The notes under the pieces: generated by a model
The model's database searches: none
Told to the model about the DNA's origin: nothing
What the model saw: the letters and a program-made list of their open reading frames with translations, nothing else
Origin: a virus
Taxonomy: Duplodnaviria; Caudoviricetes
Direction: 5' to 3' (one strand)
IMG/VR virus record: IMGVR_UViG_3300025112_006453
Location: 1-55,561 of that record
DNA length: 55,561 bases
Shown: positions 2 through 13,774 of the stretch, in pieces
Position numbering within the stretch: the stretch's first letter is position 1
Layout: each line of letters begins with the position of its first letter
Translations under genes and position numbers: made by a program

Positions 2-775
2 TCTTATATTCCACATGCTGTAAAGCCTAATATTTTTAAGCCCCTAGAAGAAGAAGTAGTAAAAGGATTTAAAGCTCAGAAAGGTCTGGCTGATAAATTT
101 GTTTGCTTTTGGAACAGTCGGAATGCACGAAGAAAGCAATCGGGAACACTAATTTGGTGGTTCAAAGAATTTTTGGACAAAGTCGGGCACGACAAGGCCA
201 CACTCATTATGCACACCGACGTAAAAGATCCTCATGGTCAAGATTTAGAAGCCATCATACACGAACTTGGGCTTACAAACGGGGAGATTCTTTTTTCTCG
301 AGAGAAGATTGATCCGACCAGCCTAGCTATGTTGTATAATATGGCCGACGTTACTATAAACCTTTCGGACGCCGAAGGCTTCGGCCTATCGGCTCTTGAG
401 TCACTTTCTAGTGGCACCCCGGTAATTGTGACGATGACCGGAGGCCTCCAAGATCAAGTTACGGATGGTAAAAATTGGTATGGTATTGGTATTGAGCCGG
501 CATCTAAAGCTATTATTGGTTCTCAACAGGTTCCATATATTTATGAGGATCGATTAAATAAAAATGATTTCATAGTTGCCTTGGAGCAGATGTATGAGAT
601 AGGTTCTGACGGCCGCCGTGAGTGGGGTCTTAAGTGCAGAGACTGGGTGGAGAAGAATTTTAATTTTGAGAATTTTGTGGAAGCATGGGATGAATTATTT
701 GAAAAGATTAATACCGAAAAGGGATCTTGGGATAGCAGAACTGGCTATACGCCCTATGAAGTGAGGACGTTCTAA
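2..775 (+). CDS. Glycosyltransferase, GT-B fold, GT4-like (5' truncated)
   Basis: The frame is open from base 2 (SYIPHAVKPNIFKP...WNSRNARRKQ). It has the GT4 motif EGFGLSALESLSSGTPVI (E-x7-E). Confidence 0.9.
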   Translation, partial: SYIPHAVKPNIFKPLEEEVVKGFKAQKGLADKFVCFWNSRNARRKQSGTLIWWFKEFLDKVGHDKATLIMHTDVKDPHGQDLEAIIHELGLTNGEILFSREKIDPTSLAMLYNMADVTINLSDAEGFGLSALESLSSGTPVIVTMTGGLQDQVTDGKNWYGIGIEPASKAIIGSQQVPYIYEDRLNKNDFIVALEQMYEIGSDGRREWGLKCRDWVEKNFNFENFVEAWDELFEKINTEKGSWDSRTGYTPYEVRTF

Positions 776-2034
776 TGTTACAAAAAATTCTTGTTAAAGG
801 GCCCGCGCTCTCCCGCTCGGGTTATGGAGAACAAACTAGGTTTGCATTGCGAGCACTAAAGTCTCGCGAAGATTTATTCGATATTTATGTTATTAACACC
901 CCGTGGGGAGGTACGGGTCAAATTGTCGAAAATGGAGAAATGCAACAGTGGATCCACGAAGTTATGACCAAAACGAGTCACTATGCTTCCCAGGGCGGCC
1001 AATTCGATCTATCTTTACAAGTTACGATTCCTCCCGAGTTTGAAAAAATTGCTCCAATCAATATTGGGTATACGGCTGGGATCGAGACTACGAAAGTGGC
1101 CCCCCAGTGGATTGAAAAATCAAATGCGGTAGTTGATAAGATAATTACAGTATCGCAGCACTCAAAGACGGTTTTTGAAAACACCAAATATGATGCCACA
1201 AACAAACAGACCGGGGAACAGGTTACAGGGTGGGGGCTGCAAGTACCAGTCGAAGCTGTTGGTTATCCTGTGCGACTGGCTGAGGCTGAAGCCGTCGATA
1301 TTAACTTAACAACAAGTAAGAATTTTTTGACCATTTCTCAGTGGGGCCCCCGAAAAAACTTAGATAATACCATAAAATGGTTTGTACAAGAGTTTGCAGA
1401 CGACGAGGATGCTGGACTTATTATAAAAGCTAATACCGCTTCTGATTCAATTATTGATCGTGTACAAACCGTAAATCGCCTCGAAGCTTTGTTAAGCACC
1501 ACCGGTGATCGAAAATGTAAGGTCTACTTAATTCACGGAGAACTGACTGAAGGCCAGCTGGGGTGGCTCTATCAGCACCCTACAATACAGGCTCTAATCA
1601 ATATTGCTCATGGAGAAGGATATGGACTGCCTTTATTTGAGGCCGCTTATAATGGGCTGCCAGTCATAACTATCACGTGGGGAGGCCAACTAGACTTTCT
1701 TTGCAGGAGCAATAAGAAAGGTAAACAAGTGCCACACGTTATTCGTGTTGACTATGATATTTCGCCTGTGCAAAAAGAGGCGGTTTGGGAAGGGGTTATC
1801 CAAAAAGACTCTATGTGGGCATATGCCAAAGAAGCCTCCTACAAACGAGCGCTGCGTGAGGCCATAGAGAAACAGAAACACTATCGCTCTCGCGCCAAAC
1901 TTCTTCAAAAGACGATACATCAGAACTTTTCTGAGGACGTTATGTTAGAGAAATTTGTAGCATGTGTTCATAAGGAGCCCGACGAAGAAGTAGTTGAGTG
2001 GCTTAAAAAGATCGAGGAAATGGAATCGCTGTGA
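775..2034 (+). CDS. Glycosyltransferase, GT4-like
   Basis: N-terminal SRSGYG, central PRKN, and the GT4 signature HGEGYGLPLFEAAYNGLPVI. TAATG overlap with the upstream gene. Confidence 0.9.
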   Translation: MLQKILVKGPALSRSGYGEQTRFALRALKSREDLFDIYVINTPWGGTGQIVENGEMQQWIHEVMTKTSHYASQGGQFDLSLQVTIPPEFEKIAPINIGYTAGIETTKVAPQWIEKSNAVVDKIITVSQHSKTVFENTKYDATNKQTGEQVTGWGLQVPVEAVGYPVRLAEAEAVDINLTTSKNFLTISQWGPRKNLDNTIKWFVQEFADDEDAGLIIKANTASDSIIDRVQTVNRLEALLSTTGDRKCKVYLIHGELTEGQLGWLYQHPTIQALINIAHGEGYGLPLFEAAYNGLPVITITWGGQLDFLCRSNKKGKQVPHVIRVDYDISPVQKEAVWEGVIQKDSMWAYAKEASYKRALREAIEKQKHYRSRAKLLQKTIHQNFSEDVMLEKFVACVHKEPDEEVVEWLKKIEEMESL

Positions 2035-2879
2035 GCCAAGTAATCTTTTTACAAGATTTCTTTGTTCATCAGCATCTTGGGGGAGGCGAACTGCATGACG
2101 CAGTTGTAATTAATTACTTCAAAAGCAGGGGTCTTCTCTATGATGAAGTAAATACATATAATGTTACGCCCGAGTACATTCTTCAAAACACCGATAAAGC
2201 GTGGTTTATAAGTAATTTTGTAGCACTAAAAAATGTTTGTAAAGCTTTGTTGGCAAAATACTGCAAATATGTGATATATGAACATGATTATAAGTTTCTA
2301 AAAAATAGAAACCCGATCGTTTACCCAAATTTTTTGGCTCCAGATAAAAGTCATAAATATAATTTTTCCTTTTATCAAAATGCAGAAAAGATAATTTGCT
2401 TAAGTAAATTTCACAAAAAGATATTTGATGATAATCTGGGTCTTTCAAACATTGATAACATCAATTGCAGTATGTGGGAGGATTCGGATCTAGAACTAAT
2501 GAAGTCACTTAACAATAGCCCGAAAAATGGAAAATATGCTGTTATTCAATCAGATAACAAAATAAAAAAAACGAAGGAGACTGTCTCATACTGCGAGAAG
2601 GCGCAGATTAACTTTGATTTAATAAAGGCGGACAATCATCATGATTTTTTGAAGATCCTGGCGCCATATCAGGCGTTAGTATTCCAAACCGGACACCCAG
2701 AGCCAACGCCGCGTATAGCTGTGGAAGCTAAAATGCTTAATTGTAATTTTATGTCGCAGAAGAATTTGATCGGTGTTGCTCACGAAGACTGGTTTCATTT
2801 AAACGGAAATGCTTTGATTAAAGAAGTGAGAGATATGCGTGATAAGGCCTGTTTGAAACTAGAAAGCATTCTTTTGTGA
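2031..2879 (+). CDS. Putative GT-B glycosyltransferase
   Basis: N-terminal GGGE loop and a C-terminal EPTPRIAVEAKMLNC E-x7-E motif. GTG start overlaps the upstream stop (GTGA). Confidence 0.7.
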   Translation: MSQVIFLQDFFVHQHLGGGELHDAVVINYFKSRGLLYDEVNTYNVTPEYILQNTDKAWFISNFVALKNVCKALLAKYCKYVIYEHDYKFLKNRNPIVYPNFLAPDKSHKYNFSFYQNAEKIICLSKFHKKIFDDNLGLSNIDNINCSMWEDSDLELMKSLNNSPKNGKYAVIQSDNKIKKTKETVSYCEKAQINFDLIKADNHHDFLKILAPYQALVFQTGHPEPTPRIAVEAKMLNCNFMSQKNLIGVAHEDWFHLNGNALIKEVRDMRDKACLKLESILL

Positions 2880-3580
2880 GGCACAACATATTAACTGTAG
2901 TAAATGAGGGGTATGCCGATTTTGGGAAGCTCTTTTTAAATTCATTATTTGAAAACGTAGACCTTCAACAAGTTGATAAAATATTAGTGCATGATACAGG
3001 ACTCTCCCAGAGTACAATAGAATACTACAATTATTTTCCAAAAGTTGAGATTGTTCCGACCGGCGCCAATTACCGATCTAATGAAATACATGACAAAGGG
3101 TGGAAAGATAACACTTACTCTAAAACAAAATATTTACTCGAGTCGCTAGAAGAAAGAGGACTTCCTACCCTGATGATTGATTCCGATTGTATATTTGCTT
3201 CATCTTTTGACGATTTAATAGATGAGAAAGCAGACATAGTTGTTTGTTCGCGAAATCGAGAAGGGTTTTCGAAATATATTGGTTCTTTTTTTGGCGCCAT
3301 AAACGTTGAAAAATCTAAGGACTTTTTATCGAAATGGATTAAGAATGTTGAATTATTACAGGATACCACCGAAATGAAACATTGCGAAAGCCCCGCGCTT
3401 TCCAAAACTATTGATGAAGAAACTATCGTAGCCCAAGAGTTACCCGAGCAAACAATATCAGCAACTTTTCCCGACAGCACTTCACTTATATATCATTTAA
3501 AATCAGACTATTATGCCACCACCATCGAGCAGCGGCTTTCGTTGCCTCATTCAACACCATTTAGAAAGAGATATTTGTAA
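2876..3580 (+). CDS. Putative GT-A nucleotide-diphospho-sugar transferase
   Basis: DxD motif (LMIDSDCIF), HDTGLS, and a late H (LIYHLK) typical of the GT-A fold. Cluster context agrees. Confidence 0.7.
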   Translation: MRHNILTVVNEGYADFGKLFLNSLFENVDLQQVDKILVHDTGLSQSTIEYYNYFPKVEIVPTGANYRSNEIHDKGWKDNTYSKTKYLLESLEERGLPTLMIDSDCIFASSFDDLIDEKADIVVCSRNREGFSKYIGSFFGAINVEKSKDFLSKWIKNVELLQDTTEMKHCESPALSKTIDEETIVAQELPEQTISATFPDSTSLIYHLKSDYYATTIEQRLSLPHSTPFRKRYL

Positions 3581-4287
3581 TGTCTCTATCGGTAGTAATA
3601 ACCACGTTCAACAGAAGCGAAGTTCTAAGACAAAATCTTGATCAGTTTAAGAAGCAGACAGACATGGATTTTGAGATTGTCGTAGCCATTGACGGCTCGA
3701 CCGATGATACGAAGGAAATGCTAGCAGGCTACGATGCGCCATTCTCAATTAAATGGGTTGATACCGAAATAAAAGATAAATATTGCTTAGCAAAAGCAAG
3801 AAACATGGGTATAATAGAGACTACAAAGCCTATTATTGTAATATTAGATGATGATAGTTTTCCTGTGGGGGGTTTTGTGGCAGCACACAAATCTAGCGTC
3901 ATGCCGAAAGTATTAACTGGCGGTTATCGTAACTCTCACGATCCAAAGGATTCCTTGCACCCTAAGATGAAAAAGACACTTTTAAAATATGGAATCAAAA
4001 AGCCACAACCTATAACCGAAAGGATTGTAGAAAACAACGCATGCATGCTGCGCAAGGACTGGATTGGTTGTGGCATGTTTTCGGAAAGGTTTGAGGGGTA
4101 TGGCGGTTGCGGACAGGAGTTTGTAGCTCGCTTGGCTCATCAGGGGTTTAAGTATCAATTTAATCCAGAGGCGATGATGTATCACCATCGGGAGTTTGAG
4201 GGAGACAATGGTCTCACTAGAGAAATAAAAAATAGGCAAGCAAGCGAATCAGTTCAAATGATTCAGAAACATTGTTGGAGTTATTAA
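3580..4287 (+). CDS. Glycosyltransferase family 2
   Basis: SVVITTFNR, DGSTDDT, ARNMGI, ILDDD and FSERFEGYGG motifs. Confidence 0.92.
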   Translation: MSLSVVITTFNRSEVLRQNLDQFKKQTDMDFEIVVAIDGSTDDTKEMLAGYDAPFSIKWVDTEIKDKYCLAKARNMGIIETTKPIIVILDDDSFPVGGFVAAHKSSVMPKVLTGGYRNSHDPKDSLHPKMKKTLLKYGIKKPQPITERIVENNACMLRKDWIGCGMFSERFEGYGGCGQEFVARLAHQGFKYQFNPEAMMYHHREFEGDNGLTREIKNRQASESVQMIQKHCWSY

Positions 4288-4320
4288 CAAATGAATTTGT
4301 TAAAGTAGAGAGGGGAAGGA

Positions 4321-4989
4321 ATGTCCTTTGTAGATAAAAATGAAGAAATATGTTTCATTCATATTGCAAAGAATGCTGGTAAATCTATTTCTTCTGCTCT
4401 AAAGAAACATTTTGAACCTTCCGAAGCTTCTGCTGGTCGTCACCCCTGGGGACTTGGCTCGGGCCACTGCACGTATTATCAGGCTCTGCGCGATTTTCCA
4501 GAAACATCTAAAAAATGGTATGCTTTTGCAGCTGTGAGAGAGCCAGTTGATAGGCTGGTGTCTGCCTACTATTATTTAAATGGGATCCCATCCCCGGGCT
4601 GGGAAGAAACCCTCAAATTTGATAAATTCGTAGAGGCTATTTACCGACTTTCTTGGGGTGGCGGCAACGATCGCTGGTCACCAGATTTGTGGTGGAAAGA
4701 TTATGCCCGGCGCTCCTTAAGCGGACAAAAATCGCGCTGGGCCCTCCCACATATAGTCCCTCAAAACTTTTATTTTAATGATAATCATAATATTAATTTA
4801 TTTAAGTTGGATAAACTTGATGAAATGTCTTTAGTCTTTAAGGAGAAATTTGACTGTGATCTCCACATCCCGCATCTTGGTGCCAGCGTAAACCGAAAGA
4901 ATATTGAGATTTCAACACATCAACTTAAAATAATTGAAAAAATTTATGAAAAGGATTTTGAAATTTATGGTCGGTTATCGTCGAAATGA
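4321..4989 (+). CDS. Sulfotransferase (Sulfotransfer_2-like, carbohydrate sulfotransferase)
   Basis: 5'-PAPS loop FIHIAKNAGKSI, 3'-PB motif VREPVDRLVSAY, HIVPQ, and C-terminal IYEKDFEIYG. Confidence 0.85.
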   Translation: MSFVDKNEEICFIHIAKNAGKSISSALKKHFEPSEASAGRHPWGLGSGHCTYYQALRDFPETSKKWYAFAAVREPVDRLVSAYYYLNGIPSPGWEETLKFDKFVEAIYRLSWGGGNDRWSPDLWWKDYARRSLSGQKSRWALPHIVPQNFYFNDNHNINLFKLDKLDEMSLVFKEKFDCDLHIPHLGASVNRKNIEISTHQLKIIEKIYEKDFEIYGRLSSK

Positions 4990-5025
4990 GAGAAGTTGCA
5001 ATTAAAAAAATATGTAGTAAATTTG

Positions 5026-5619
5026 ATGAAAAAACTTAACAATTATAAAACTTACAAAGACTATCTTCTTCATCAGGCTGCCAAAACGACAGACCCCTAT
5101 CGTAGGGAAAAGTGGCTCGGTAAAGAATGGGATATAAAACTAGATGGATTTAAAAAGATCTTTATCGAAAAAGAAGAGTTACTTAAAGAATGTCGGAATG
5201 TCCTGTGCGTCGGCGCCCGTACAGGACAAGAGGTGGTGGCCCTCAAAGATTTGGGATATCATGCTGTGGGGATTGATTTAATTCCATGTGCTCCTCACGT
5301 TATTCATGGCGATATGCACAACCTTGAGTTTGAAAATAACTCATTTGACTGCGTTTTTTCTAATGTATTTGATCATTCTTTACATCCAGAGAAAAAATGT
5401 AGCGAGATAGAGAGAGTGTTATCTCCAGACGGAGTTATAATCATGCAATTTCAACTAAATGTTTCACAAGATAAATATACAGAGGTTGAAATCAACAGTC
5501 TCCTTGATGATGTGGTGCCTCTGTTTGATAACTGTACGGTTGTTTCTTGCGGCCCAATTGCTGCTAATTTTGCGGCCATGAATCACGAACTTGTTTTGAG
5601 AAAGAACCTGAGCTCATAA
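5026..5619 (+). CDS. Class I SAM-dependent methyltransferase (Methyltransf_11-like)
   Basis: VLCVGARTG motif I, GDMHNLEFENNSFDCVFSN and EIERVLSPDG. ATG 5026 is preferred over TTG 4996. Confidence 0.85.
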   Translation: MKKLNNYKTYKDYLLHQAAKTTDPYRREKWLGKEWDIKLDGFKKIFIEKEELLKECRNVLCVGARTGQEVVALKDLGYHAVGIDLIPCAPHVIHGDMHNLEFENNSFDCVFSNVFDHSLHPEKKCSEIERVLSPDGVIIMQFQLNVSQDKYTEVEINSLLDDVVPLFDNCTVVSCGPIAANFAAMNHELVLRKNLSS

Positions 5620-5620
5620 A

Positions 5621-6283
5621 ATGCTGAAAGACATATTAGATACTCACCTGTCGGAGATAGAGGTACCCCGCGACTACCAGCGAATTTGGGATGAGGTTAA
5701 TCTGCCAACACAAATACGAAAAGCAGAAAGAAACAATCTTCCGCCTGCACAGAGAGAGGCTGTTTTTGAGAGGCTCTCGAAACGTGGCTATTATTTAACC
5801 CAGATAGCTCACAAATATGGCGCCAAAAACATATTGGAAGTGGGAACAGCAGAAGGCTGGCAGTTTTTTAGTTTTGGGGAGTATTGCCGCGGCGAATCTG
5901 GCCATGTCTGGAGTTGCGATGTAGAAGATAAGTACGATAAATCATACGCCCAAAAATATTCCGATGTGTGCACCTTCGTACATGGCGATAGCGCTAAATT
6001 AACTGCTAAGCTTCGCGAAGAAAATGTAAAGATTGATTTATTTTACGTCGACGGATCTCATGAGCGAGGTGCCGTAATAAGAGACGTTTTGAACTTGAAA
6101 GAACTACAATCCGACGAGAGGACTCCTATTTGGATTTTTGACGACTATGATCAAAGATTTGGGTGTTATAATGACATTGCAATGATTCTAGATAAGGTGC
6201 CATCATATTTTGTATACTCAGTTGGCAAGACGGCCAGCAATAATCCAAATCACCAAGTCGTTGTTCGAGGAAGATTTCCATGA
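5621..6283 (+). CDS. Class I SAM-dependent methyltransferase (Methyltransf_24-like)
   Basis: ILEVGTAEG, HGDS, IDLFYVDGSH and IFDDY motifs. Confidence 0.85.
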   Translation: MLKDILDTHLSEIEVPRDYQRIWDEVNLPTQIRKAERNNLPPAQREAVFERLSKRGYYLTQIAHKYGAKNILEVGTAEGWQFFSFGEYCRGESGHVWSCDVEDKYDKSYAQKYSDVCTFVHGDSAKLTAKLREENVKIDLFYVDGSHERGAVIRDVLNLKELQSDERTPIWIFDDYDQRFGCYNDIAMILDKVPSYFVYSVGKTASNNPNHQVVVRGRFP

Positions 6284-7227
6284 AAATATTATATATTGAA
6301 AGACAACATACTGATACTTTTTCATATTATAATGAAATCATGAAAGCTGTTGGAAATGAGGCACAAACATATCAATATTCTAATTGGTCTCCAAAACAAA
6401 AACTGAACTTACACGTCCGAGACCTGGCCACATACATTAGAGCCACCAACTTTGTACCAGAAGTATTTTTATTTGGTTTCGGCTGGACCGACTGTTCTTA
6501 TGATTATCCCAACGTTATAGATGGTCTGCGCGAGAGTGGAATCCCCACAGCCGTAATTCTAAACAAAGAATATGCCGCCTTAGATAAGAAGCTTGATTGG
6601 ATAAAAGATTTAAATCCTATATGCGCATTTACAGTTCATCATGATTATCAAGAATATGAAAAAACTACAGGTATTCCATTCTATCAATTACCGTTTGCCG
6701 TCAATCCGAATATCTTTAAAGATTATGGAGAAGAATATGATTGCGACTTTGGGTTTACTGGAATAGTGCGCCCGGAGCAAACAAACAATTGGCGTCAAAA
6801 GATCGAGGAGCGCAGCAGAGAATGGGAAGATATTAATTTTTCGTTTTCTGCCCATCGCCGCGATACTCTGGAAAGCTATGCTAGGCGCATTAGCCGATCT
6901 AAAATATGGCTTAGCACAACTGGACCCGGCGATTTAGTGGGGCCGAGATATTATGAAGTAATGGCAGCCGGAAGAACTCTTTTGATGTGTAATCGATTTG
7001 ATAGAGGATATGAAGGTCTCTTTAGTGAAGACGAACACTGTGTTATGTTTGAAACCCTGGAAGAGCTAGAAGATAAACTTCGGTATTATCTTGCAAACGA
7101 AGACAAGCGCGTACAAATCATACGAAATGCTCAGGCACACACTCTCAAACACCACACATGGCAGGAAAGAGCCCAGAGGGTGATATCAGGTATTACAGAA
7201 AATTTGGAGAAAAAAACAGATGAGTAA
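6280..7227 (+). CDS. Glycosyltransferase, CgeB/Glyco_trans_1_2-like
   Basis: LPFAVNP, DFGFTG, RYYEVMAAG, ELEDKLRYYL and HTWQERA are typical of this GT-B subgroup. Confidence 0.85.
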   Translation: MKILYIERQHTDTFSYYNEIMKAVGNEAQTYQYSNWSPKQKLNLHVRDLATYIRATNFVPEVFLFGFGWTDCSYDYPNVIDGLRESGIPTAVILNKEYAALDKKLDWIKDLNPICAFTVHHDYQEYEKTTGIPFYQLPFAVNPNIFKDYGEEYDCDFGFTGIVRPEQTNNWRQKIEERSREWEDINFSFSAHRRDTLESYARRISRSKIWLSTTGPGDLVGPRYYEVMAAGRTLLMCNRFDRGYEGLFSEDEHCVMFETLEELEDKLRYYLANEDKRVQIIRNAQAHTLKHHTWQERAQRVISGITENLEKKTDE

Positions 7228-8152
7228 AGGCAAACATAACGCAGCAATTTATTTGTTATCATCTCGAACCTCTATGCTTAAAAAATCTTTAGAATTTTTA
7301 TATTCAAACTGGAATAATGAGTATGATTATCCCGTATATGTACATTATTTCGACAACATCTATAGTCAAGAATTTATTAATAATATTACAAGCACTATTT
7401 CACCGAAGATTTCTTTTCATCAAATTGATTACGAAGTTCCCGAACATATACCCGAAGAGACGTTATTCTATAATCGCAAATATTTGAAATATGTTCGTAC
7501 TTCATTTCCACCGGCAAGAATTGGATACTTGCACATGGAACATTTTGTTAATAATTTCCACAAATATGGTGAAAAGGGCTGTTTAATTAAAGATTTAGAG
7601 AAATACGATTATTTGATGAGGATTGATGACGACTCGTGGTTTAAGGAGAAAATAGATTTTGATCTCTTTGATCGCGTTCAGGATGTTCCTGTGGCCACTG
7701 CGTATAGCTGGCGACACGCGCATTGGCGCCATGAGCAAACTACTGAAAATCTATGGAAATTTTATTTGGCATATTTAAATATTAAAAATATTAAGCCCGA
7801 AAGTATCAAAAACAATATTCTAAGAGAGGCCGCCATGACGCGTAGCACAGAGCTAACATTCCCACAGACAGTAGAAGTTAGTTGTGGTAACTTGAATATT
7901 TATAATATTAAGATGCTCTTGAATGCCGGTTATGAAGACTGGATGAATTTTGTTAATGATTACGGCGGCGCCTACAAGCATCGTTGGGGCGATATTGAAA
8001 CAATAGCATTATTTACTGGCACGATGTTTGAGTATCCTCTTCGAGTTCTGGGGCTAAAAGAAAAGGGACTTTATAATCCCCAGCTCCCTGGCTGGACGTA
8101 TGCTCCGAGTACACTACATAATGAAGGGCCTTCGAGAGGAAAAAAAAGCTAA
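7220..8152 (+). CDS. GT15 (Kre2/Mnt1)-like glycosyltransferase, putative mannosyltransferase
   Basis: YDYPVYV, GYLHMEHF, YDYLMRIDDDS and YKHRWGD parallel the GT15 motifs YRHMCRF, YWRVEP and ERWGD. Confidence 0.7.
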   Translation: MSKGKHNAAIYLLSSRTSMLKKSLEFLYSNWNNEYDYPVYVHYFDNIYSQEFINNITSTISPKISFHQIDYEVPEHIPEETLFYNRKYLKYVRTSFPPARIGYLHMEHFVNNFHKYGEKGCLIKDLEKYDYLMRIDDDSWFKEKIDFDLFDRVQDVPVATAYSWRHAHWRHEQTTENLWKFYLAYLNIKNIKPESIKNNILREAAMTRSTELTFPQTVEVSCGNLNIYNIKMLLNAGYEDWMNFVNDYGGAYKHRWGDIETIALFTGTMFEYPLRVLGLKEKGLYNPQLPGWTYAPSTLHNEGPSRGKKS

Positions 8153-8799
8153 TGAAAGTCCTTATATGCGGTAGAGGCGAATCTCTAAAATACTATAAAA
8201 AGCTTAAAGACAAAAAATTTGATTATATATATTTGATAAACGATTTTAATATTTTTATACGTCAGGACGCCGAACTATTATCTTTTTTTCAAGCCAATAA
8301 GAATGCAAAAATAATACAACAAGTTAATATATGCATCACAGGAGTTGATAGTTTTTTGTTGAAAAATTTATCTATACATGAATGCCGCGTAGCACGGTGC
8401 CCTCACATACCAGGTAGTTCTCATTGGGTCGATGACAAGGCGGACACAACAAAGTTTATGAGACAAGGGCTTGATATAGAGGTTAAGCCATACCCGTCTT
8501 TGTTAAGGAACCACATTGTTGATCTAGAAGTATCTAATTCTTTGCCCGTTGCAATAATAGATGCAGCAATTACCAAAGGATGTGAGGAAGTTACCGTGCT
8601 AGGAGCAGATTTTTACGAAACAGGATACTATTTAAATGCGCCGCAAAATTGGACTACTGAAAATACGAAGCCTACCCAAGATAGGCTTAAGAGCGGGATG
8701 ACCAGGGTGTGTAAAGAGTTTTCAGATGTGCGATTTACATTTTATACTTATTCGTCATATAATAGTGGTTTACATAATTGTAATTTTATAAAATTATAA
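8152..8799 (+). CDS. Cst/GT42- or Maf-like putative nonulosonic acid (sialyl) transferase
   Basis: N-terminal KVLICGRGESL and GCEEVTVLGADFY resemble CstII KKVIIAGNGPSL and GYKEIYLSGIDFY. The gene lies directly before neuA/neuB. Confidence 0.55.
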   Translation: MKVLICGRGESLKYYKKLKDKKFDYIYLINDFNIFIRQDAELLSFFQANKNAKIIQQVNICITGVDSFLLKNLSIHECRVARCPHIPGSSHWVDDKADTTKFMRQGLDIEVKPYPSLLRNHIVDLEVSNSLPVAIIDAAITKGCEEVTVLGADFYETGYYLNAPQNWTTENTKPTQDRLKSGMTRVCKEFSDVRFTFYTYSSYNSGLHNCNFIKL

Positions 8800-8816
8800 C
8801 TAAGTTAATAAAAAAG

Positions 8817-8845
8817 TCGACAAACAGCCTAAAGTGTGTTATATT
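8817..8845 (+). promoter_or_regulatory. Sigma70-type promoter upstream of neuA
   Basis: TCGACA (8817-8822), a 17-nt spacer, and TATATT (8840-8845) with extended -10 TG (8837-8838). An A-tract lies upstream. The site is in one of the few intergenic gaps of the cluster. Confidence 0.5.
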
Positions 8846-8877
8846 ATAGAAAAAGGATAAATAATGGTATATGTTAT

Positions 8878-9543
8878 ATGAGTGCGATTAAAGATAACAA
8901 AGATAATTTATGGATCGTCATCCCCGCACGCCAAGGCTCCGTTGGATTTCCAAATAAAAATAGGCTACTTTTTGAATACACTGCTTTACAGATACCTGAA
9001 TACCTAAGAAAAAGAACGGTAGTAACAACAGACGACGATGTTTTAAAAAAAGAGGCATCCGCTTTTGGATTTATTGTTATCGACCGGCCTGAAATTTTGG
9101 CCACAGCTGAAGCAAGCACAAGAGACGCACTGGATCATGTAAAAGAATATTTGTGCATGTCTGAAAACGATGTTGTAATAATGCTATACTTAACCTTCCC
9201 GGAGAGAAGATTTAAGGATGTAGAAAAAGTGTTTGATTTTTATAAGGATAACGGTGCTAAAAGCGTGCTTTGTAAAAGCAAAGTAGACAAACATCCATAT
9301 TTGTGTCTATATGAGGAACCGGGCAACACCGGCAGACAGATTATAAGACACGATATGTACAGAAGACAAGATTACCCAAAGTGTTTCTTTGTGCTTCATT
9401 ATGTGACTATCTGCAAAGTATCAGAGATCGACAAATTAAACAAAAATCTTTATAATAACGACACACTATATTTTTCAATAGAAAGAAAGATAGACATTGA
9501 TGAACCAGAACATTTTGAGAAATGGAAAAAAGATGACTTTTAG
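8878..9543 (+). CDS. neuA: Acylneuraminate (CMP-nonulosonate) cytidylyltransferase
   Basis: IPARQGSVGFPNKN, VTTDD, IDRPEILA, RRQD and IDIDEPEHF. ATG 8878 is preferred over GTG 8836. Confidence 0.88.
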   Translation: MSAIKDNKDNLWIVIPARQGSVGFPNKNRLLFEYTALQIPEYLRKRTVVTTDDDVLKKEASAFGFIVIDRPEILATAEASTRDALDHVKEYLCMSENDVVIMLYLTFPERRFKDVEKVFDFYKDNGAKSVLCKSKVDKHPYLCLYEEPGNTGRQIIRHDMYRRQDYPKCFFVLHYVTICKVSEIDKLNKNLYNNDTLYFSIERKIDIDEPEHFEKWKKDDF

Positions 9544-10417
9544 CCCCTATAAAGATACTTTAAACTTGCCGTTTTTTATTGCCGAAATCGGTATTAATCA
9601 TAATGGCGATATAGAGATATGTAAGCAATTAATAGACATGGCCGTTGAGAGCGGCTGCAACGCGGTTAAATTCCAGAAGAGGGAAATCGATACCGTTTAC
9701 ACCCAAGAATACCTTGCATCGGCACGTCAGAGCCCATGGGGAACCACTCAAAGGGATCAGAAAGAAGGGCTGGAGTTTGGCAAAGCCGAATATGATGAAA
9801 TTGATCGATATTGCAAGAAAAAGGGCATCTTATGGAGCGCATCCGCTTGGGATACCCAGAGTCAGTATTTCTTGCGCGGGTACGATCTGCCCTTCAACAA
9901 GGTGGCTTCCGCGATGCTTACTCATCTTGAATTACTCAGGATAATTGCTGAAGAAGGCAAACACACTTTTATTTCCACTGGGATGTCTACCAGCGAAGAT
10001 ATTGAGAAGGCGTTAGCAATTTTCTGCACAGCTACGTGTCCTGTTACCCTCTTTCATTGTGTTTCGACCTACCCGTGCAAAGACGAAGATTGCAATATCA
10101 ACCTTGTCAAAAACCTACAGATTCAATACAACATTCCTGTGGGATATAGCGGTCACGAAGCAGGCATATTGCCTTCGCTATTGGCTGTAGCTGTTGGAGC
10201 GACTGCTTTAGAGCGCCACATCACTCTGGACAAAACTATGTATGGCTCAGATCAGTCGGCGTCTATCGAATGCGAAGCCCTACAAACACTAATTCGTGAA
10301 TCGCGACAAGTTACTAATACGCTTGGCACCGGACAAAAAGAATTCCTTCAGCATGAGATTCCCATAGCCGAGAAATTACGTTATTTTGAGGGAGGAAAGA
10401 GTGCGTCAGACGGATAA
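9533..10417 (+). CDS. neuB: N-acetylneuraminate/nonulosonate synthase (short form, no obvious C-terminal AFP-like domain)
   Basis: FIAEIGINHNGD, AVKFQKR, ISTGMS, HCVSTYP, GYSGHE and ERHITLD...GSDQSAS. Confidence 0.95.
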   Translation: MTFSPYKDTLNLPFFIAEIGINHNGDIEICKQLIDMAVESGCNAVKFQKREIDTVYTQEYLASARQSPWGTTQRDQKEGLEFGKAEYDEIDRYCKKKGILWSASAWDTQSQYFLRGYDLPFNKVASAMLTHLELLRIIAEEGKHTFISTGMSTSEDIEKALAIFCTATCPVTLFHCVSTYPCKDEDCNINLVKNLQIQYNIPVGYSGHEAGILPSLLAVAVGATALERHITLDKTMYGSDQSASIECEALQTLIRESRQVTNTLGTGQKEFLQHEIPIAEKLRYFEGGKSASDG

Positions 10418-10760
10418 TATTTCCTTTGTACCCAAAGGATGGGGTTTTGAAAAATGGATTATAAATTGTGAAGAATATTGTGGAAAGCTGTTATACTTTG
10501 TGAAAGGAAAGCGTTGTTCGTGGCACTATCATAGGTTGAAAGATGAAGTTTTTTACGTACAGTCTGGTCGCATTAGGGTGAGATACTCGAACCGTGACGA
10601 TTGGAATTCGGCCGACTCGATCGTACTCGTCCCGGGCGACAACTTTCATGTAGCTCGCGGATTGCGCCACCAAATGGAGGCACTTGAAGATACGGAGTTG
10701 TTTGAGTTTTCAACACAACATTTTGATTCGGATAGCTACCGGATTAAGAAGGGCGATTAA
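10401..10760 (+). CDS. Cupin (sugar isomerase / mannose-6-phosphate isomerase-like)
   Basis: VPKGWGFE, SWHYH..KDEVFYV and LRHQM cupin motifs. GTG 10401 is preceded by GGAGG. Confidence 0.8.
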   Translation: MRQTDNISFVPKGWGFEKWIINCEEYCGKLLYFVKGKRCSWHYHRLKDEVFYVQSGRIRVRYSNRDDWNSADSIVLVPGDNFHVARGLRHQMEALEDTELFEFSTQHFDSDSYRIKKGD

Positions 10761-11086
10761 TGATAATTTATGTTGATATAGATGAAACAATTTGTCACTA
10801 CGAGGACCTTAGGGAATATCCCTTAGCGCTTCCTATTCTTGAGAATATCAAAAAGATTAACGACCTATACGACGCGGGACATACCGTTGTCTATTGGACC
10901 GCACGAGGCGCCAAAACGGGTATCGACTGGACGAAGCTTACCCACCAACAACTAAAGGATTGGGGCGCAAAGTACACCGACTGCTGCTTAGGCAAACCAG
11001 ACTACGATTTATTTATTTGTGATAAAGCTATAAATTCCAACTCTTTTTTTGAGAGTAGAGAAGAAAATTTTTATAATAGGCAATAG
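10760..11086 (+). CDS. Capless HAD-superfamily phosphatase (capsule-biosynthesis phosphatase-like)
   Basis: Motif I VDIDETIC, motif II WTARG, and motifs III/IV GKP-x-YDLFICDKA. Confidence 0.85.
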   Translation: MIIYVDIDETICHYEDLREYPLALPILENIKKINDLYDAGHTVVYWTARGAKTGIDWTKLTHQQLKDWGAKYTDCCLGKPDYDLFICDKAINSNSFFESREENFYNRQ

Positions 11087-11108: not shown

Positions 11109-12068
11109 ATGAAGAAAATTTTTATAACAGGCATTAGTGGATTTATTGGAAAATACCTTTCCAAGAAATTAATTGAAGAGGGAGATTATGAAATCCATGG
11201 TCTGGTGGAAAAAGATCCCGACAGAGATCTTGGGTTTGAATATACCGCCTGGGCCGGCTCCCTAACGGACTTTGATTTAATTGGAAAATATTTGGAAGAG
11301 ATTAATCCGCACTTTATTATTCATCTCGCCGCACGTACCGAGGTTGAAAAAAGCTTTTATGATCCCATTCATTTCCAAACAGTTAACTACGATGGAACGG
11401 TCAACCTTATTGAAAAATCCAAGAATTTGTCTAATTTAGAGTTATTTGTTTTCTCTTCCACCATGGAAACGTATGGTGCGGTGCCAAAATCTGAATGGGT
11501 TGCGTTTGACGAAGACACTAAACAATATCCCAATGCTCCCTACGCTGTGGCCAAGATTGGGTGTGAGTACTATTTGAGATATGCGGAACGCTCCTATGAC
11601 TTTCCGTTCACAGCCCTTCGACAAACCAACACATATGGGAGATGGGATAACGACTTTTTTGTTGTAGAACAGATTATCACACAGATGCTCAATAACCCGG
11701 ACGAAATTAGCTTAGGTTATAGACAGCCGTATAGGAACTTTTTATTTATTGATGATTTAATCAACCTATACACCACTGTACTTAAAAATGTTGATTTGGC
11801 AAAAGGCGAGATCTTTTGCACTGGTCCGGACAACGCAATTCAGATAAAAGAACTTGCGGACGTAATCGGAGAGAAGCTCAACTGGAAGGGCAAGATTATG
11901 TGGGGGACGAAGCCCCCCCGAGCAGGAGAGATTTATTATCTTAATTCCACAGCAGAAAAGGCCCGAAGAATTTTAAATTGGGGTCCGGAAACTGACCTAG
12001 ATAGTGGGCTTGATAAAACAATCGAAATGTGGAGAGGTCGCATTTCGACGAAGGCCACTGATGGCTAG
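11109..12068 (+). CDS. NAD-dependent epimerase/dehydratase (extended SDR; NDP-hexose 4,6-dehydratase-like)
   Basis: TGISGFIG, HLAA, STMETYG and YAVAK (YxxxK). AGGAG Shine-Dalgarno before ATG 11109. Confidence 0.92.
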   Translation: MKKIFITGISGFIGKYLSKKLIEEGDYEIHGLVEKDPDRDLGFEYTAWAGSLTDFDLIGKYLEEINPHFIIHLAARTEVEKSFYDPIHFQTVNYDGTVNLIEKSKNLSNLELFVFSSTMETYGAVPKSEWVAFDEDTKQYPNAPYAVAKIGCEYYLRYAERSYDFPFTALRQTNTYGRWDNDFFVVEQIITQMLNNPDEISLGYRQPYRNFLFIDDLINLYTTVLKNVDLAKGEIFCTGPDNAIQIKELADVIGEKLNWKGKIMWGTKPPRAGEIYYLNSTAEKARRILNWGPETDLDSGLDKTIEMWRGRISTKATDG

Positions 12069-12933
12069 ATGCTTGGTAACCGGACACAAAGGTTATATAG
12101 GGTCCAGATTATTTAAAAAATTGCAGGATCTTGGCCATGAAGTTGCGGGGATTGATTTGGAAGATAAAATTTCAAAAGACATCATATCTTATCTCAAAGA
12201 AGATAACGATGGTAATTTTCACCCTTACTATACTGCTTTTGAACCAGAATATATCTTTCATTTAGCATGTTGGCCTAGAATTGGATTCAGTCTAGAAAAC
12301 CCGGTCGAAACTATGCGAAACAATGTTATGGGGGGCACTGTTTTGTTAAACTTTGCCAACAAGATGGCGTCTGTTAAAAGGGTAGTCTATTCTTCTTCAT
12401 CATCGGTGGTAGGGAATGGTACCGGGCCTACTAATCCTTATGCCTTGCATAAATTAATAACAGAAAAAGAGTGCGGGATCTACTCTGAGGTTTACGGATT
12501 AGATACAGTATGTTTAAGATACTTTAATGTATATTCAGAAGATCAGCCGGCCGACGGTCCGTATGCGACAGCTATAGCTAATTGGATGCATACCTTGCGC
12601 GAAGGCAACATCCCGTTTATTACCGGCGACGGGGAGCAGCGCCGCGACATGGTGCATGTGGAGGATGTAGTATTAGCCAACATTCATTGTATGGAACATG
12701 CTGAGCGATTTGACGGAAAAGTTTTTGATGTGGGCACTGGTCAAAATATCTCTCTTAATGAAATTAAAAATATTGTTAAGAGGTATCATGACGTAAGATT
12801 TAACTATATCGGTCCTAGACCCGGCGAAGTAGCAACTACGTTGGCAGATACAGAACCACTTAAAAATTGTGGCTGGAAGGCGCAGACCTCTATAGCAGAC
12901 GGTATTGATGGGTGTTTTAATTTTGAAAAATAA
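12061..12933 (+). CDS. NAD-dependent epimerase/dehydratase (extended SDR)
   Basis: TGHKGYIG, SSSS, YALHK, LRYFNVY and GDGEQRRD. Confidence 0.92.
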   Translation: MARCLVTGHKGYIGSRLFKKLQDLGHEVAGIDLEDKISKDIISYLKEDNDGNFHPYYTAFEPEYIFHLACWPRIGFSLENPVETMRNNVMGGTVLLNFANKMASVKRVVYSSSSSVVGNGTGPTNPYALHKLITEKECGIYSEVYGLDTVCLRYFNVYSEDQPADGPYATAIANWMHTLREGNIPFITGDGEQRRDMVHVEDVVLANIHCMEHAERFDGKVFDVGTGQNISLNEIKNIVKRYHDVRFNYIGPRPGEVATTLADTEPLKNCGWKAQTSIADGIDGCFNFEK

Positions 12934-13774
12934 TAAAACAATTGGTATTGTAGGTCAGGGTTTTGTTGGGACTGCTATTCGCGAGGGAATGAAAAAATAC
13001 TATAATATAGAAACATATGACAAGTATTTTGCCGATCGCTCAACTTGCAATAGTTTAGAGGAGTTATGCAGAAAGGCACAAATAGTATTTACGTGCTTGC
13101 CAACGCCCATGAAAAAAGACGGTTCATGTGACCTGTCCATTTTGGAAGACACGGTATATAAGATTAATCAGCTGGCTCTTAATAGTGTGGTGATAATAAA
13201 ATCAACAGTCATTATAGGCACCACGGCAAGACTGAATAACGAATGTAAAAATATAGATGTAGTTTTTAACCCAGAGTTTTTGACTGAAGCTAATTATATC
13301 GATGATTTTAGAAATCAAAATAGGATTATTATAGGCGGCCCGCGCCCAGCAACCACGCTTGTTAAAAACATGTTTCGAAAAGTCTTTCAAGAGGCGACGA
13401 TAGTTAAAACCGGCTCAAACACGGCTGAGGCCGTTAAGTATTTTACTAATTGTTTTTTGGCCACCAAAGTAAGCTTTGCTAATGAGTTTAAACAAATTTG
13501 TGATGAAACGGATGTTGATTACGATAAAGTAGTAGAATATGCCTTATACGATGGCAGAATCGGAAAGACTCATTTTTCTACTCCGGGCCCAGACGGCAAA
13601 AGGGGCTTTGGGGGCTCCTGTTTCCCCAAAGACTTAAATGCCCTGATGTATTATGCTAATATGTTAGGGATTTCGACAAGCGTTATGGAAGGCGCTTGGA
13701 ATAAAAACCTTGAGGTAAGGCCCGCAAAAGACTGGGAACTACTCATAGGAAGAGCAATTTCAAAAGACCAATAA
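12905..13774 (+). CDS. UDP-glucose/GDP-mannose dehydrogenase family (short form lacking the C-terminal domain); start uncertain
   Basis: GIVGQGFVG, CLPTP, IKSTV, FNPEFL, AEAVKY..N and GFGGSCFPKD (catalytic Cys). Confidence 0.9.
   Translation: MMGVLILKNNKTIGIVGQGFVGTAIREGMKKYYNIETYDKYFADRSTCNSLEELCRKAQIVFTCLPTPMKKDGSCDLSILEDTVYKINQLALNSVVIIKSTVIIGTTARLNNECKNIDVVFNPEFLTEANYIDDFRNQNRIIIGGPRPATTLVKNMFRKVFQEATIVKTGSNTAEAVKYFTNCFLATKVSFANEFKQICDETDVDYDKVVEYALYDGRIGKTHFSTPGPDGKRGFGGSCFPKDLNALMYYANMLGISTSVMEGAWNKNLEVRPAKDWELLIGRAISKDQ

Follow-up and report, generated by a model that had tools for sequence, protein, structure and literature searches.

A five-gene phage block with a SAF-less NeuB homologue and its possible route to a KDN-like sugar

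Which sialic-acid-like sugar could a phage make with five adjoining genes that include a NeuB homologue, a cupin and a small predicted phosphatase, and from which precursor? The genes lie on the complete IMG/VR record IMGVR_UViG_3300025112_006453, 55,561 bases in length (hereafter the window), with a CheckV completeness of 35%; results on missing genes cover this record, about 35% of the genome. Five co-oriented plus-strand open reading frames (ORFs) exactly span positions 8152-11086 (Table 1). An earlier note on this DNA had listed them as a Cst-like transferase, neuA, neuB, a cupin and a capless haloacid dehalogenase-type (HAD) protein, and ORF and family searches confirm this contiguous set. 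Junctions of the TAATG type are present at 8150-8154 and 10758-10762; the NeuA and NeuB frames overlap by 11 nucleotides and the NeuB and cupin frames by 17 nucleotides.

The note had further stated that no UDP-N-acetylglucosamine 2-epimerase, aminotransferase or acetyltransferase was encoded in the window. This is borne out by Pfam searches of 40 ORFs and six-frame hidden Markov model searches, in which Epimerase_2/NeuC, DegT, Hexapep and NanE were all missing from the window. Five related phage records, including two of 100% completeness, likewise gave no NeuC above the cut-off. The window contains a CMP-transferase and a HAD phosphatase without NeuC, the context of a KDN-9-phosphate synthase, where KDN is 3-deoxy-D-glycero-D-galacto-non-2-ulosonic acid.

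We hold it just probable that the five genes encode a route in the style of KDN or 3-deoxy-D-manno-oct-2-ulosonic acid (Kdo), starting from a phosphorylated aldose; the most likely sugar would be KDN from mannose 6-phosphate (Man-6-P). The cupin would convert a ketose phosphate to a manno-configured aldose phosphate, which the SAF-less NeuB would join with phosphoenolpyruvate (PEP) to give a 3-deoxy-2-ulosonate with a terminal phosphate. The small capless HAD protein would remove this phosphate, the NeuA homologue would turn the ulosonate into a CMP-sugar and the GT42-like protein would attach it to a glycan assembled by enzymes of the adjacent island (glycosyltransferases, a sulfotransferase and methyltransferases). 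We infer these steps from homology and gene context, and with them the step order, the substrates and the acceptor. According to PMC6200933, Bacteroides thetaiotaomicron and Prymnesium parvum have an established KDN route that joins Man-6-P to PEP and continues with a phosphatase and a CMP-transferase.

The part of the proposal that concerns a phosphorylated substrate and a dedicated transferase, also put forward in the earlier note, is supported by the linkage of HAD genes to this type of NeuB, by phages with two NeuBs, by the lack of NeuC in the five relatives and by the Kdn of Streptomyces. As to the sugar, KDN appears to be favoured by the Streptomyces link, by the mixing of loci with and without an isomerase across the NeuB clade and by the isomerase-less phage loci L012-L020, which fit a common host metabolite.

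Short NeuB, its phosphatase partner and the Streptomyces link

The NeuB homologue matches PF03102 (2.9e-67, 227.1 bits, cut-off 22.1) over profile positions 1-241 of 241. It has no PF08666 SAF domain and stops about 10 residues past the catalytic domain. On TIGR03569, the equivalog model for NeuB/NnaB, its score of 237.1 bits falls short of the cut-off (399.65), the match covering profile positions 2-272 of 329, and on the PseI equivalog TIGR03586 it scores 174.2 bits against 340.25; the neighbours of a PseI-type enzyme (DegT, Hexapep or a Polysacc_synt_2-type PseB) are missing from the window. In view of these scores, the missing SAF domain and the lack of NeuC, DegT, Hexapep and NanE in the window, the assignment of the protein to N-acetylneuraminic acid (Neu5Ac), pseudaminic acid (Pse) or legionaminic acid (Leg) was set aside. 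Its closest PDB relative is 6ncs, a short NeuB of 290 residues (5.9e-43).

Loci encoding such short NeuBs were compared in 17 phage loci and in the best 80 of 598 cellular loci. The tree of NeuB comprised 45 sequences, 37 short ones and eight SAF-bearing or second copies, leaving aside BT1714, the P. parvum synthase and human NANS. The short sequences split from the other eight with support of 100/100, and the NeuB of the window groups with those of phage loci L004 and L005 (100/99). Members of the short-NeuB clade are frequent in marine phages, SAR11, ammonia-oxidising archaea, Streptomyces and other groups. Among GenBank phages, a NeuB match of any kind is encoded in only 3 of 50,697 records, with at most 41% identity, and a search of the ESM Atlas yielded viral and actinomycete NeuB clusters and nothing further.

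Residues K49, R50, R65, R228, K281 and R283 show little or no variation among the 37 short NeuBs and differ in the other eight; W101, W106 and the GYSGHE motif (G207, E209) are likewise confined to the clade. Some of these residues may form a phosphate site. Short and SAF-type NeuBs have E18, N22, H23, K46, Q48, K123, S206, H208, E227, H229 and D240 in common, which we take, from the literature on Neisseria meningitidis NeuB, to be the metal and PEP residues.

The 108-aa protein encoded by the last gene carries the HAD motifs DxDxT, T, K and D, whose residues D6, D8, T10, T47, K79 and D88 do not vary among 13 aligned sequences. Its residues 5-96 match PDB entry 9iqw, a 134-aa 'capsule biosynthesis protein' (1.8e-12) for which no publication was found. 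By its motifs and the lack of a cap insertion, the protein is classed as a capless (C0) HAD with a predicted phosphatase function. The label 'phosphoheptose isomerase' of phrog_1238, which it matches at 3e-24, was not adopted; the motifs are those of a HAD phosphatase. The earlier note had likened the protein to the capless HAD of the Bacteroides KDN route. The capless architecture stands, but the subfamily does not: NF058599 and TIGR01670 (KDN-9-P phosphatase and KdsC) are not matched at E≤1, the BT1713 structures are not among the PDB matches at E≤10 and the only NCBIfam matches, both weak, are EcbF-BcbF (0.015) and BT0820 (0.069). On sequence, the protein belongs to a small EcbF/BcbF-like family and not to the BT1713/KdsC type.

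A HAD phosphatase is encoded in 53 of the 80 cellular short-NeuB loci (49 KdsC-like, 4 small HAD), mostly abutting NeuB, and homologues of the small HAD of the window are found in 12 of the 17 phage loci. The small HAD gene lies directly upstream of NeuB in L012, L013, L017, L019 and L020, and L033 and L040 have the order NeuB, small HAD, cytidylyltransferase. Its linkage to short NeuB occurs without a cupin or kinase in L012, L013, L015 and L017-L020; a heptose kinase was found in none of the five records searched among the cupin-less HAD-NeuB loci, all five being fragments. Because HAD phosphatases are coupled to short NeuB across these loci, the NeuB product probably carries a phosphate, as in the Kdo/KDN pathways described in PMC6200933. 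In the Riflebacteria locus L033, a single 334-aa ORF adjoining short NeuB (L033:6982-7986) fuses a small HAD to an S-adenosylmethionine methyltransferase domain.

The HAD of the window is 55-60% identical to the NeuB-linked HADs of phages and 40-46% identical to the cellular ones. Identity to the HADs of heptose-like modules in cyanophages is 46% in alignment A4 and 42-44% by tblastn. In the latter HADs, motif II is followed by a 13-aa insert (L003:5655-5999; L002:6336-6674), which is missing from the window protein and from all aligned NeuB-linked HADs and may serve as a marker of substrate class.

Four phages, L004, L005, L011 and L015, carry a second NeuB copy. In L004 (2058-3056 and 7989-8879), L005 (5574-6635 and 7998-8864) and L015 (7989-8819 and 10774-11748), the SAF-bearing copy is flanked by PseB-like, DegT, formyltransferase or GNAT genes, and the short copy is accompanied by a HAD, a cupin and a separate cytidylyltransferase. 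Two NeuBs, each with its own cytidylyltransferase, imply that such a phage would make two different ulosonic acids. L004, the closest relative of the window, also encodes an HpcH/HpaI-aldolase-like protein between two cytidylyltransferases and the small HAD (L004:10571-11350); this protein is absent from the window.

In 5 of the 17 phage loci and 10 of the 80 cellular ones, a class-III aminotransferase follows short NeuB and the cytidylyltransferase (Table 1), often together with a glyoxalase-fold protein and methyltransferases. This linkage suggests that ulosonic acids with amino modifications arise there by a route distinct from that of Pse/Leg.

The Streptomyces loci connect the clade with a product. 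Their NeuBs are 44-48% identical to that of the window and belong to the same SAF-less clade, on a separate branch. Directly upstream of NeuB, a cytidylyltransferase and a KdsC-type HAD are joined in a single frame (L083:4719-5900; L091:4760-5930). The L083 genome (G012) contains one NeuB only, of the short type; short NeuB was matched in 59 of 61 sampled Streptomyces genomes, with a single match in all but one of the 59. The wall polymer is described in PMC11481543 as a teichulosonic acid of Gal and Kdn, its cluster is given in PMC13011467, which cites Ostash 2014, as SCO4873-SCO4882 and PMC3479208 lists SCO4880 and SCO4881 as NeuA and NeuB. From this we infer KDN-9-P to be the product of the short Streptomyces NeuB. 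KDN is ranked first for the phage because this Kdn is the only product tied to the short-NeuB clade.

The coupling of HAD to NeuB indicates a phosphorylated substrate but not which one, and an animal-type route could be drawn from it as well: host N-acetylmannosamine 6-phosphate (ManNAc-6-P) would be converted to Neu5Ac-9-P, which the HAD would dephosphorylate for conversion to CMP-Neu5Ac, with no part for the cupin. The NeuB motifs KFQK, GYSGHE and ERHITLD resemble those of the human Neu5Ac-9-P synthase. A putative ManNAc-6-P 2-epimerase is reported for the Streptomyces coelicolor cluster (PMC3479208). The Streptomyces polymer, however, contains Kdn and not Neu5Ac (PMC11481543), and the P. 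parvum enzyme is described as strict for Man-6-P (PMC6200933). NanE is also lacking in the window, G001, G002 and G005, with one sub-threshold match (23 bits) in G004, and no NeuC or GNE-like gene was found in the window or the five related records. The animal-type route is considered very improbable.

The cupin and the choice of sugar

The cupin matches PF07883 with 34.3 bits (cut-off 27.2). Its metal motif HxH..E...H (H42, H44, E49, H90) is invariant in 31 sequences, as in a metalloenzyme. The AlphaFold2 (AF2) model is a beta-barrel with a predicted local distance difference test score (pLDDT) of 89.6; in Foldseek, its top match is the D-lyxose/D-mannose isomerase 7nzp (4.6e-9), followed by the CapF cupin. 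Sequence and profile searches of the PDB yielded weak, mixed matches only, and the entry 7zvm, named 'mannose-6-phosphate isomerase', was matched at E 0.2 only; the protein was not assigned to the phosphomannose isomerase (PMI) or GmhA families. The label 'cysteine dioxygenase' of phrog_7851, matched at 4.9e-60, was not adopted. A cupin gene directly downstream of short NeuB is also present in L004 and L005.

The cupin has orthologues (63-64% identical) in the complete cyanophages P-SSM2 and P-TIM68, where it is found with a small HAD and four further genes. These include an rfaE_dom_I-like kinase (3.3e-43), an rfaE_dom_II-like transferase (heptose-1-P adenylyltransferase; 1e-30 to 2e-36) and an HldD-like epimerase (ADP-glyceromanno-heptose 6-epimerase; 209.9 bits), all these family matches being below the model cut-offs. 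P-TIM68 alone has a thiamine-diphosphate enzyme annotated as transketolase-like, whose NCBIfam matches are mostly to pyruvate dehydrogenase E1 models. A gmhA gene was found in none of the five records searched, among them the complete P-SSM2 and P-TIM68. Because gmhA is lacking there, the cupin would by elimination be the isomerase of the cyanophage module, and the HAD its GmhB-like phosphatase.

Several results weigh against KDN from Man-6-P as the product of the block. In the cyanophage modules, the product of the cupin would be heptose-7-P and not Man-6-P. The cupin family is large (6246 homologues, the top 120 of which are 74-93% identical, with 52 columns invariant in the 31 sequences) and matches to its fold are generic, at least 500 at E≤0.001, so the rank of 7nzp does not decide the substrate; no PMI family (PF01050/PF20511) is matched in Pfam at E≤0.01. 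The NeuB of the window falls within a 22-row subgroup (100/100) together with GmhA-like- and aminotransferase-linked loci, the Streptomyces group having a branch of its own in the clade. To these are added the subfamily of the HAD and the putative epimerase of S. coelicolor, both noted above. In G004 and G006, NeuB occurs together with the kinase and the transferase, and the cupin and HAD could serve a heptose route there. Furthermore, 65% of the genome is unseen and precursor genes could lie elsewhere. The role of the cupin as a supplier of Man-6-P is therefore put forward with reserve; its context points at least equally to the isomerisation of sedoheptulose-7-P.

GmhA-like SIS_2 proteins are encoded in 29 of the 80 cellular short-NeuB loci and score 169-202 bits on TIGR00441, near its cut-off of 209. 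The Nitrosopumilaceae locus L037:5471-7417 has the order HAD-NeuB-SIS, its HAD scoring 170.8 bits on the KDN-9-P phosphatase model (cut-off 180), and the SAR11 locus L038:5396-6828 has the order SIS-NeuB. In Lachnospiraceae (L029:5974-7868), a GmhA-like isomerase is fused to a KdsC-like HAD in one 348-aa protein. To judge by these loci, the general module consists of an isomerase, a short NeuB, a phosphatase and a cytidylyltransferase, and the cupin and small HAD of the phages fill the places held by SIS and KdsC-type proteins in cells.

These neighbours, the cyanophage modules without gmhA and the conservation of the cupin (64-80% identity) in G000, G001 and G002 together suggest another product. 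No heptose kinase or nucleotidyltransferase was found in these three genomes, in which NeuB and the cupin adjoin (G002 is 67% complete); in the window, L004 and L005, NeuB and NeuA occupy the places of the kinase and the transferase. The cupin would then be a non-homologous replacement of GmhA, acting as a sedoheptulose-7-P isomerase, and NeuB would combine PEP with D-glycero-D-manno-heptose-7-P to form a ten-carbon 3-deoxy-2-ulosonate 10-phosphate, followed by dephosphorylation, CMP activation and transfer. This pathway would extend to bacteria and archaea with short NeuB beside a GmhA-like isomerase and a HAD. We know of no natural ten-carbon ulosonic acid. A literature search for a NeuB-GmhA pathway found nothing relevant in titles and abstracts, and Kdn remains the only product tied to the clade. 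Loci with and without SIS are mixed in the clade, which fits one common substrate better than two, and the L012-L020 phages without an isomerase would have to draw on a common host metabolite. Neighbouring genes in polysaccharide clusters, which mix pathways, need not be coupled either. The ten-carbon product is thus regarded as unlikely.

A GmhA-like or cupin enzyme could, in addition, isomerise either ketose. Isomerisation of fructose-6-P and of sedoheptulose-7-P involves the same stereochemistry one carbon apart; both isomerase types, cupin and SIS, could make Man-6-P from the former, leading to KDN, and could equally make D-glycero-D-manno-heptose-7-P from the latter, leading to the ten-carbon acid.

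The cupin-HAD-epimerase order in the window mirrors that in P-TIM68, which we count against a coupling of these genes to NeuB. Two unrelated modules might then be present. The cupin and HAD would be the isomerase and phosphatase of a route to NDP-heptose, with its kinase and nucleotidyltransferase encoded in the 65% of the genome that was not sequenced; NeuB and NeuA would produce Neu5Ac, Leg or Pse, drawing on an unphosphorylated sugar that comes either from the host or from the action of genes elsewhere. The 35% completeness of the record leaves room for such genes, G004 and G006 do combine NeuB, cupin, kinase and transferase, and the best NCBIfam model of NeuB is NeuB_NnaB (237 bits). That score, like the one for PseI (174 versus 340.25), is far below the equivalog cut-off (399.65), and the protein has no SAF domain. 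The HAD is tied to short NeuB in loci without a cupin, no kinase was found in the five records searched for it and the window HAD has no insert of the heptose-module type. NeuC is missing from all five relatives, two of them complete, the enzymes for Pse/Leg accompany the SAF-bearing copy in the two-NeuB phages and conservation of the cupin extends to G001 and G002, in which neither kinase nor transferase was found. A pair of independent modules is accordingly rated as decidedly unlikely, and the Kdo/KDN-style route with KDN as its first candidate product is retained.

Transferase, synthetase and genomic surroundings

The first gene of the block encodes a 215-aa protein without a match in Pfam, PHROG, NCBIfam or single-sequence PDB searches. 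Its family is rare, with 34 representatives at E≤1e-3 among 1.84 billion. Nine of the 13 PDB matches of the family profile (alignment A1) at E≤10, and the nine best, are GT42 sialyltransferases, headed by Cst-I 2p2v (9.3e-5), then Cst-II and 9c08. In Foldseek, the AF2 model (pLDDT 89.3) has Cst-II chains at ranks 1-7 (E 2.6e-5; TM-score 0.50-0.57 on the better-aligned chains). Pfam CST-I (PF06002) was matched by 2 of 20 family members, at best at 7.6e-4, and not by the window protein. The profile match and the predicted GT-A-variant fold of Cst-II place the protein in GT42, so the label 'Cst-like' given to it in the earlier note holds for both fold and family. Residues R8, G9, S11, G151, D153 and F154 and the DFY(E) motif are invariant in A1; the region after DFY(E) has no conserved His. 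The catalytic base of Cst-II is His188; no counterpart was seen in the 215-aa protein, no superposition of the active sites having been made. Homologues were found in none of the 17 related phage loci; similarity to the MptE-like and CST-like neighbours there is at the motif level only.

The NeuA homologue matches CMP-Neu5Ac synthetases of the PDB over most of its length (phmmer; 6ifd 5.3e-10, 1eyr 6.3e-8) and shows the N-terminal motif IPARxGS...KN in its translation. Its NCBIfam matches are weak (PseF 5.4e-6, KdsB 2.6e-5), and on Pfam CTP_transf_3 (PF02348) it scores 18.3 bits, below the cut-off of 22.6.

Table 1. Genes of the block, flanking genes in the window and aminotransferase genes in related loci
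Feature	Position	Strand	Details
GT42-like (Cst-like) putative ulosonate transferase	8152..8799	+	215 aa, short form; GRGxSL and GxDFYE motifs
CMP-ulosonate (CMP-sialate/CMP-KDN type) synthetase homologue	8878..9543	+	221 aa from ATG; alternative start GTG 8836
SAF-less NeuB-family synthase	9533..10417	+	294 aa from ATG; alternative start TTG 9497
Metal cupin, putative ketose-phosphate/aldose-phosphate isomerase	10401..10760	+	119 aa; GTG start behind GGAGG; alternative TTG 10386
Capless (C0) HAD phosphatase, EcbF/BcbF-like, putative ulosonate-omega-phosphate phosphatase	10760..11086	+	108 aa
Upstream glycan island	173..8152	+	GT4 x2, GT2, nucleotide-diphospho-sugar transferase-like, sulfotransferase, two methyltransferases, Glyco_trans_1_2, GT15-like (Pfam)
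Downstream nucleotide-sugar genes	11109..13774	+	Two short-chain dehydrogenase/reductase (SDR) epimerase/dehydratases, UDP-glucose-dehydrogenase-like ORF (Pfam, NCBIfam, PHROGs)
Class-III aminotransferase loci	L007:9517-10767; L008:9601-10863; L010:9577-10926; L016:6185-7564; L023:7565-9363; L033:8866-10128; L040:7906-9294		

The left third of the window is a plus-strand glycan island (Pfam), which takes in the five-gene block together with its upstream and downstream neighbours in Table 1. Pfam also identifies there a GT15-like protein of the glycolipid 2-alpha-mannosyltransferase family (7220-8152; 7.1e-16) and a Sulfotransfer_2 protein (4321-4989; 2.5e-10). The GT15 family is mainly eukaryotic. 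The two proteins suggest a mannosylated, sulfated glycan as the acceptor. Downstream of the block, the UDP-glucose-dehydrogenase-like ORF (12905-13774, 289 aa) has the NAD and central domains and no C-terminal UDP-binding domain; a tblastn search with a full-length phage UDP-glucose dehydrogenase revealed no remnant of this domain further downstream. At the edge of another phage glycan island, in L014 (203,859 bases with terminal repeats, rated 100% complete), a 394-aa protein matches the catalytic domain of the large chain of ribulose-1,5-bisphosphate carboxylase/oxygenase (L014:15180-16364; PF00016, 2.9e-33).

The remainder of the window encodes an M23 peptidase, a gp25-like baseplate protein, a primase-like ORF and, in the structural region, two giant ORFs at 20667-27401 (2244 aa) and 31207-40779 (3190 aa). 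The longer one has two Laminin_G_3 stretches; otherwise neither giant ORF has a family match. A search for tRNA genes in the window found none. The carrier is a large myovirus with no close cultured relative. The highest identity of its gp6-like baseplate protein, 28.5%, is to proteins from Microcystis phage Mel-JY01 and from Flavobacterium phages; against Synechococcus phages it reaches 23.5%. Two further structural-protein queries gave no matches; because of these low identities and empty searches, no host was assigned. The idea of a T4-like cyanophage was dropped: besides the baseplate value, the DNA likeness to cyanophages is confined to the cupin region (24 records, 60-80% identity, query positions 2274-2648).

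Significance and comparison with known systems

Routes from a phosphorylated sugar to a sialic-acid-like sugar have so far been described in cells, not in phages; a search for a phage or cyanophage nonulosonate or KDN-type module found nothing relevant in titles and abstracts, which is not proof of absence. If the proposed route is correct, the phage carries a complete supply line for a sialic-acid-like sugar from central metabolites (fructose-6-P or sedoheptulose-7-P, PEP and cytidine triphosphate), and its own transferase and large glycan island would allow it to decorate host-surface or virion glycans. The GmhA-like or cupin partner of short NeuB would represent either a new type of Man-6-P-forming isomerase or a new sugar; the ten-carbon ulosonic acid of the minority reading would be a new kind of sugar. 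As a rule for annotation, it is proposed that a SAF-less NeuB with residues of the K49/R50/R65 type, adjoining a HAD phosphatase, marks a phosphorylated-substrate route.

Among known systems, the KDN pathways of B. thetaiotaomicron (phosphatase BT1713, KDN-9-P synthase BT1714 and CMP-KDN synthetase BT1715) and P. parvum follow the same logic, with a NeuB-family synthase for a phosphorylated manno-aldose, a capless HAD, a CMP-transferase and no NeuC (PMC6200933). The likeness is one of pathway logic; the phage HAD (108 aa) is of another, EcbF/BcbF-like subfamily, and the block, carried by a phage, adds a cupin at the place of the isomerase and a GT42-like transferase. The teichulosonic-acid cluster of Streptomyces has a NeuB of the same SAF-less clade, with phosphatase and cytidylyltransferase directly upstream, but its phosphatase is of the KdsC type, fused to the cytidylyltransferase, and it has no cupin, SIS isomerase or GT42-like gene.

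The Kdo pathway KdsD-KdsA-KdsC-KdsB has the same four-step design of isomerase, PEP-dependent synthase, HAD phosphatase and CMP-transferase. The phage synthase, however, is of the NeuB family and not KdsA, which resembles 3-deoxy-D-arabino-heptulosonate 7-phosphate (DAHP) synthase; its predicted isomerase is a cupin and not an SIS+CBS protein, and its HAD is not KdsC-type. The ADP-heptose-like modules of P-SSM2 and P-TIM68 have the cupin and the small HAD in common with the block, but there they accompany the rfaE-like kinase, adenylyltransferase and HldD-like epimerase, in whose kinase and adenylyltransferase places the window has NeuB and NeuA; the 13-aa HAD insert is found in the heptose modules only. 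Cst-I and Cst-II of Campylobacter jejuni resemble the 215-aa protein in profile, fold and the motifs GxGxSL and G(I/A)DFY(E/Q), although they are longer, at roughly 260-290 aa, and the identity in structural alignments is 13-17%. The departures of the phage block from the known KDN and Kdo designs are thus the phosphatase subfamily, the cupin, the short GT42-like transferase and the phage carrier.

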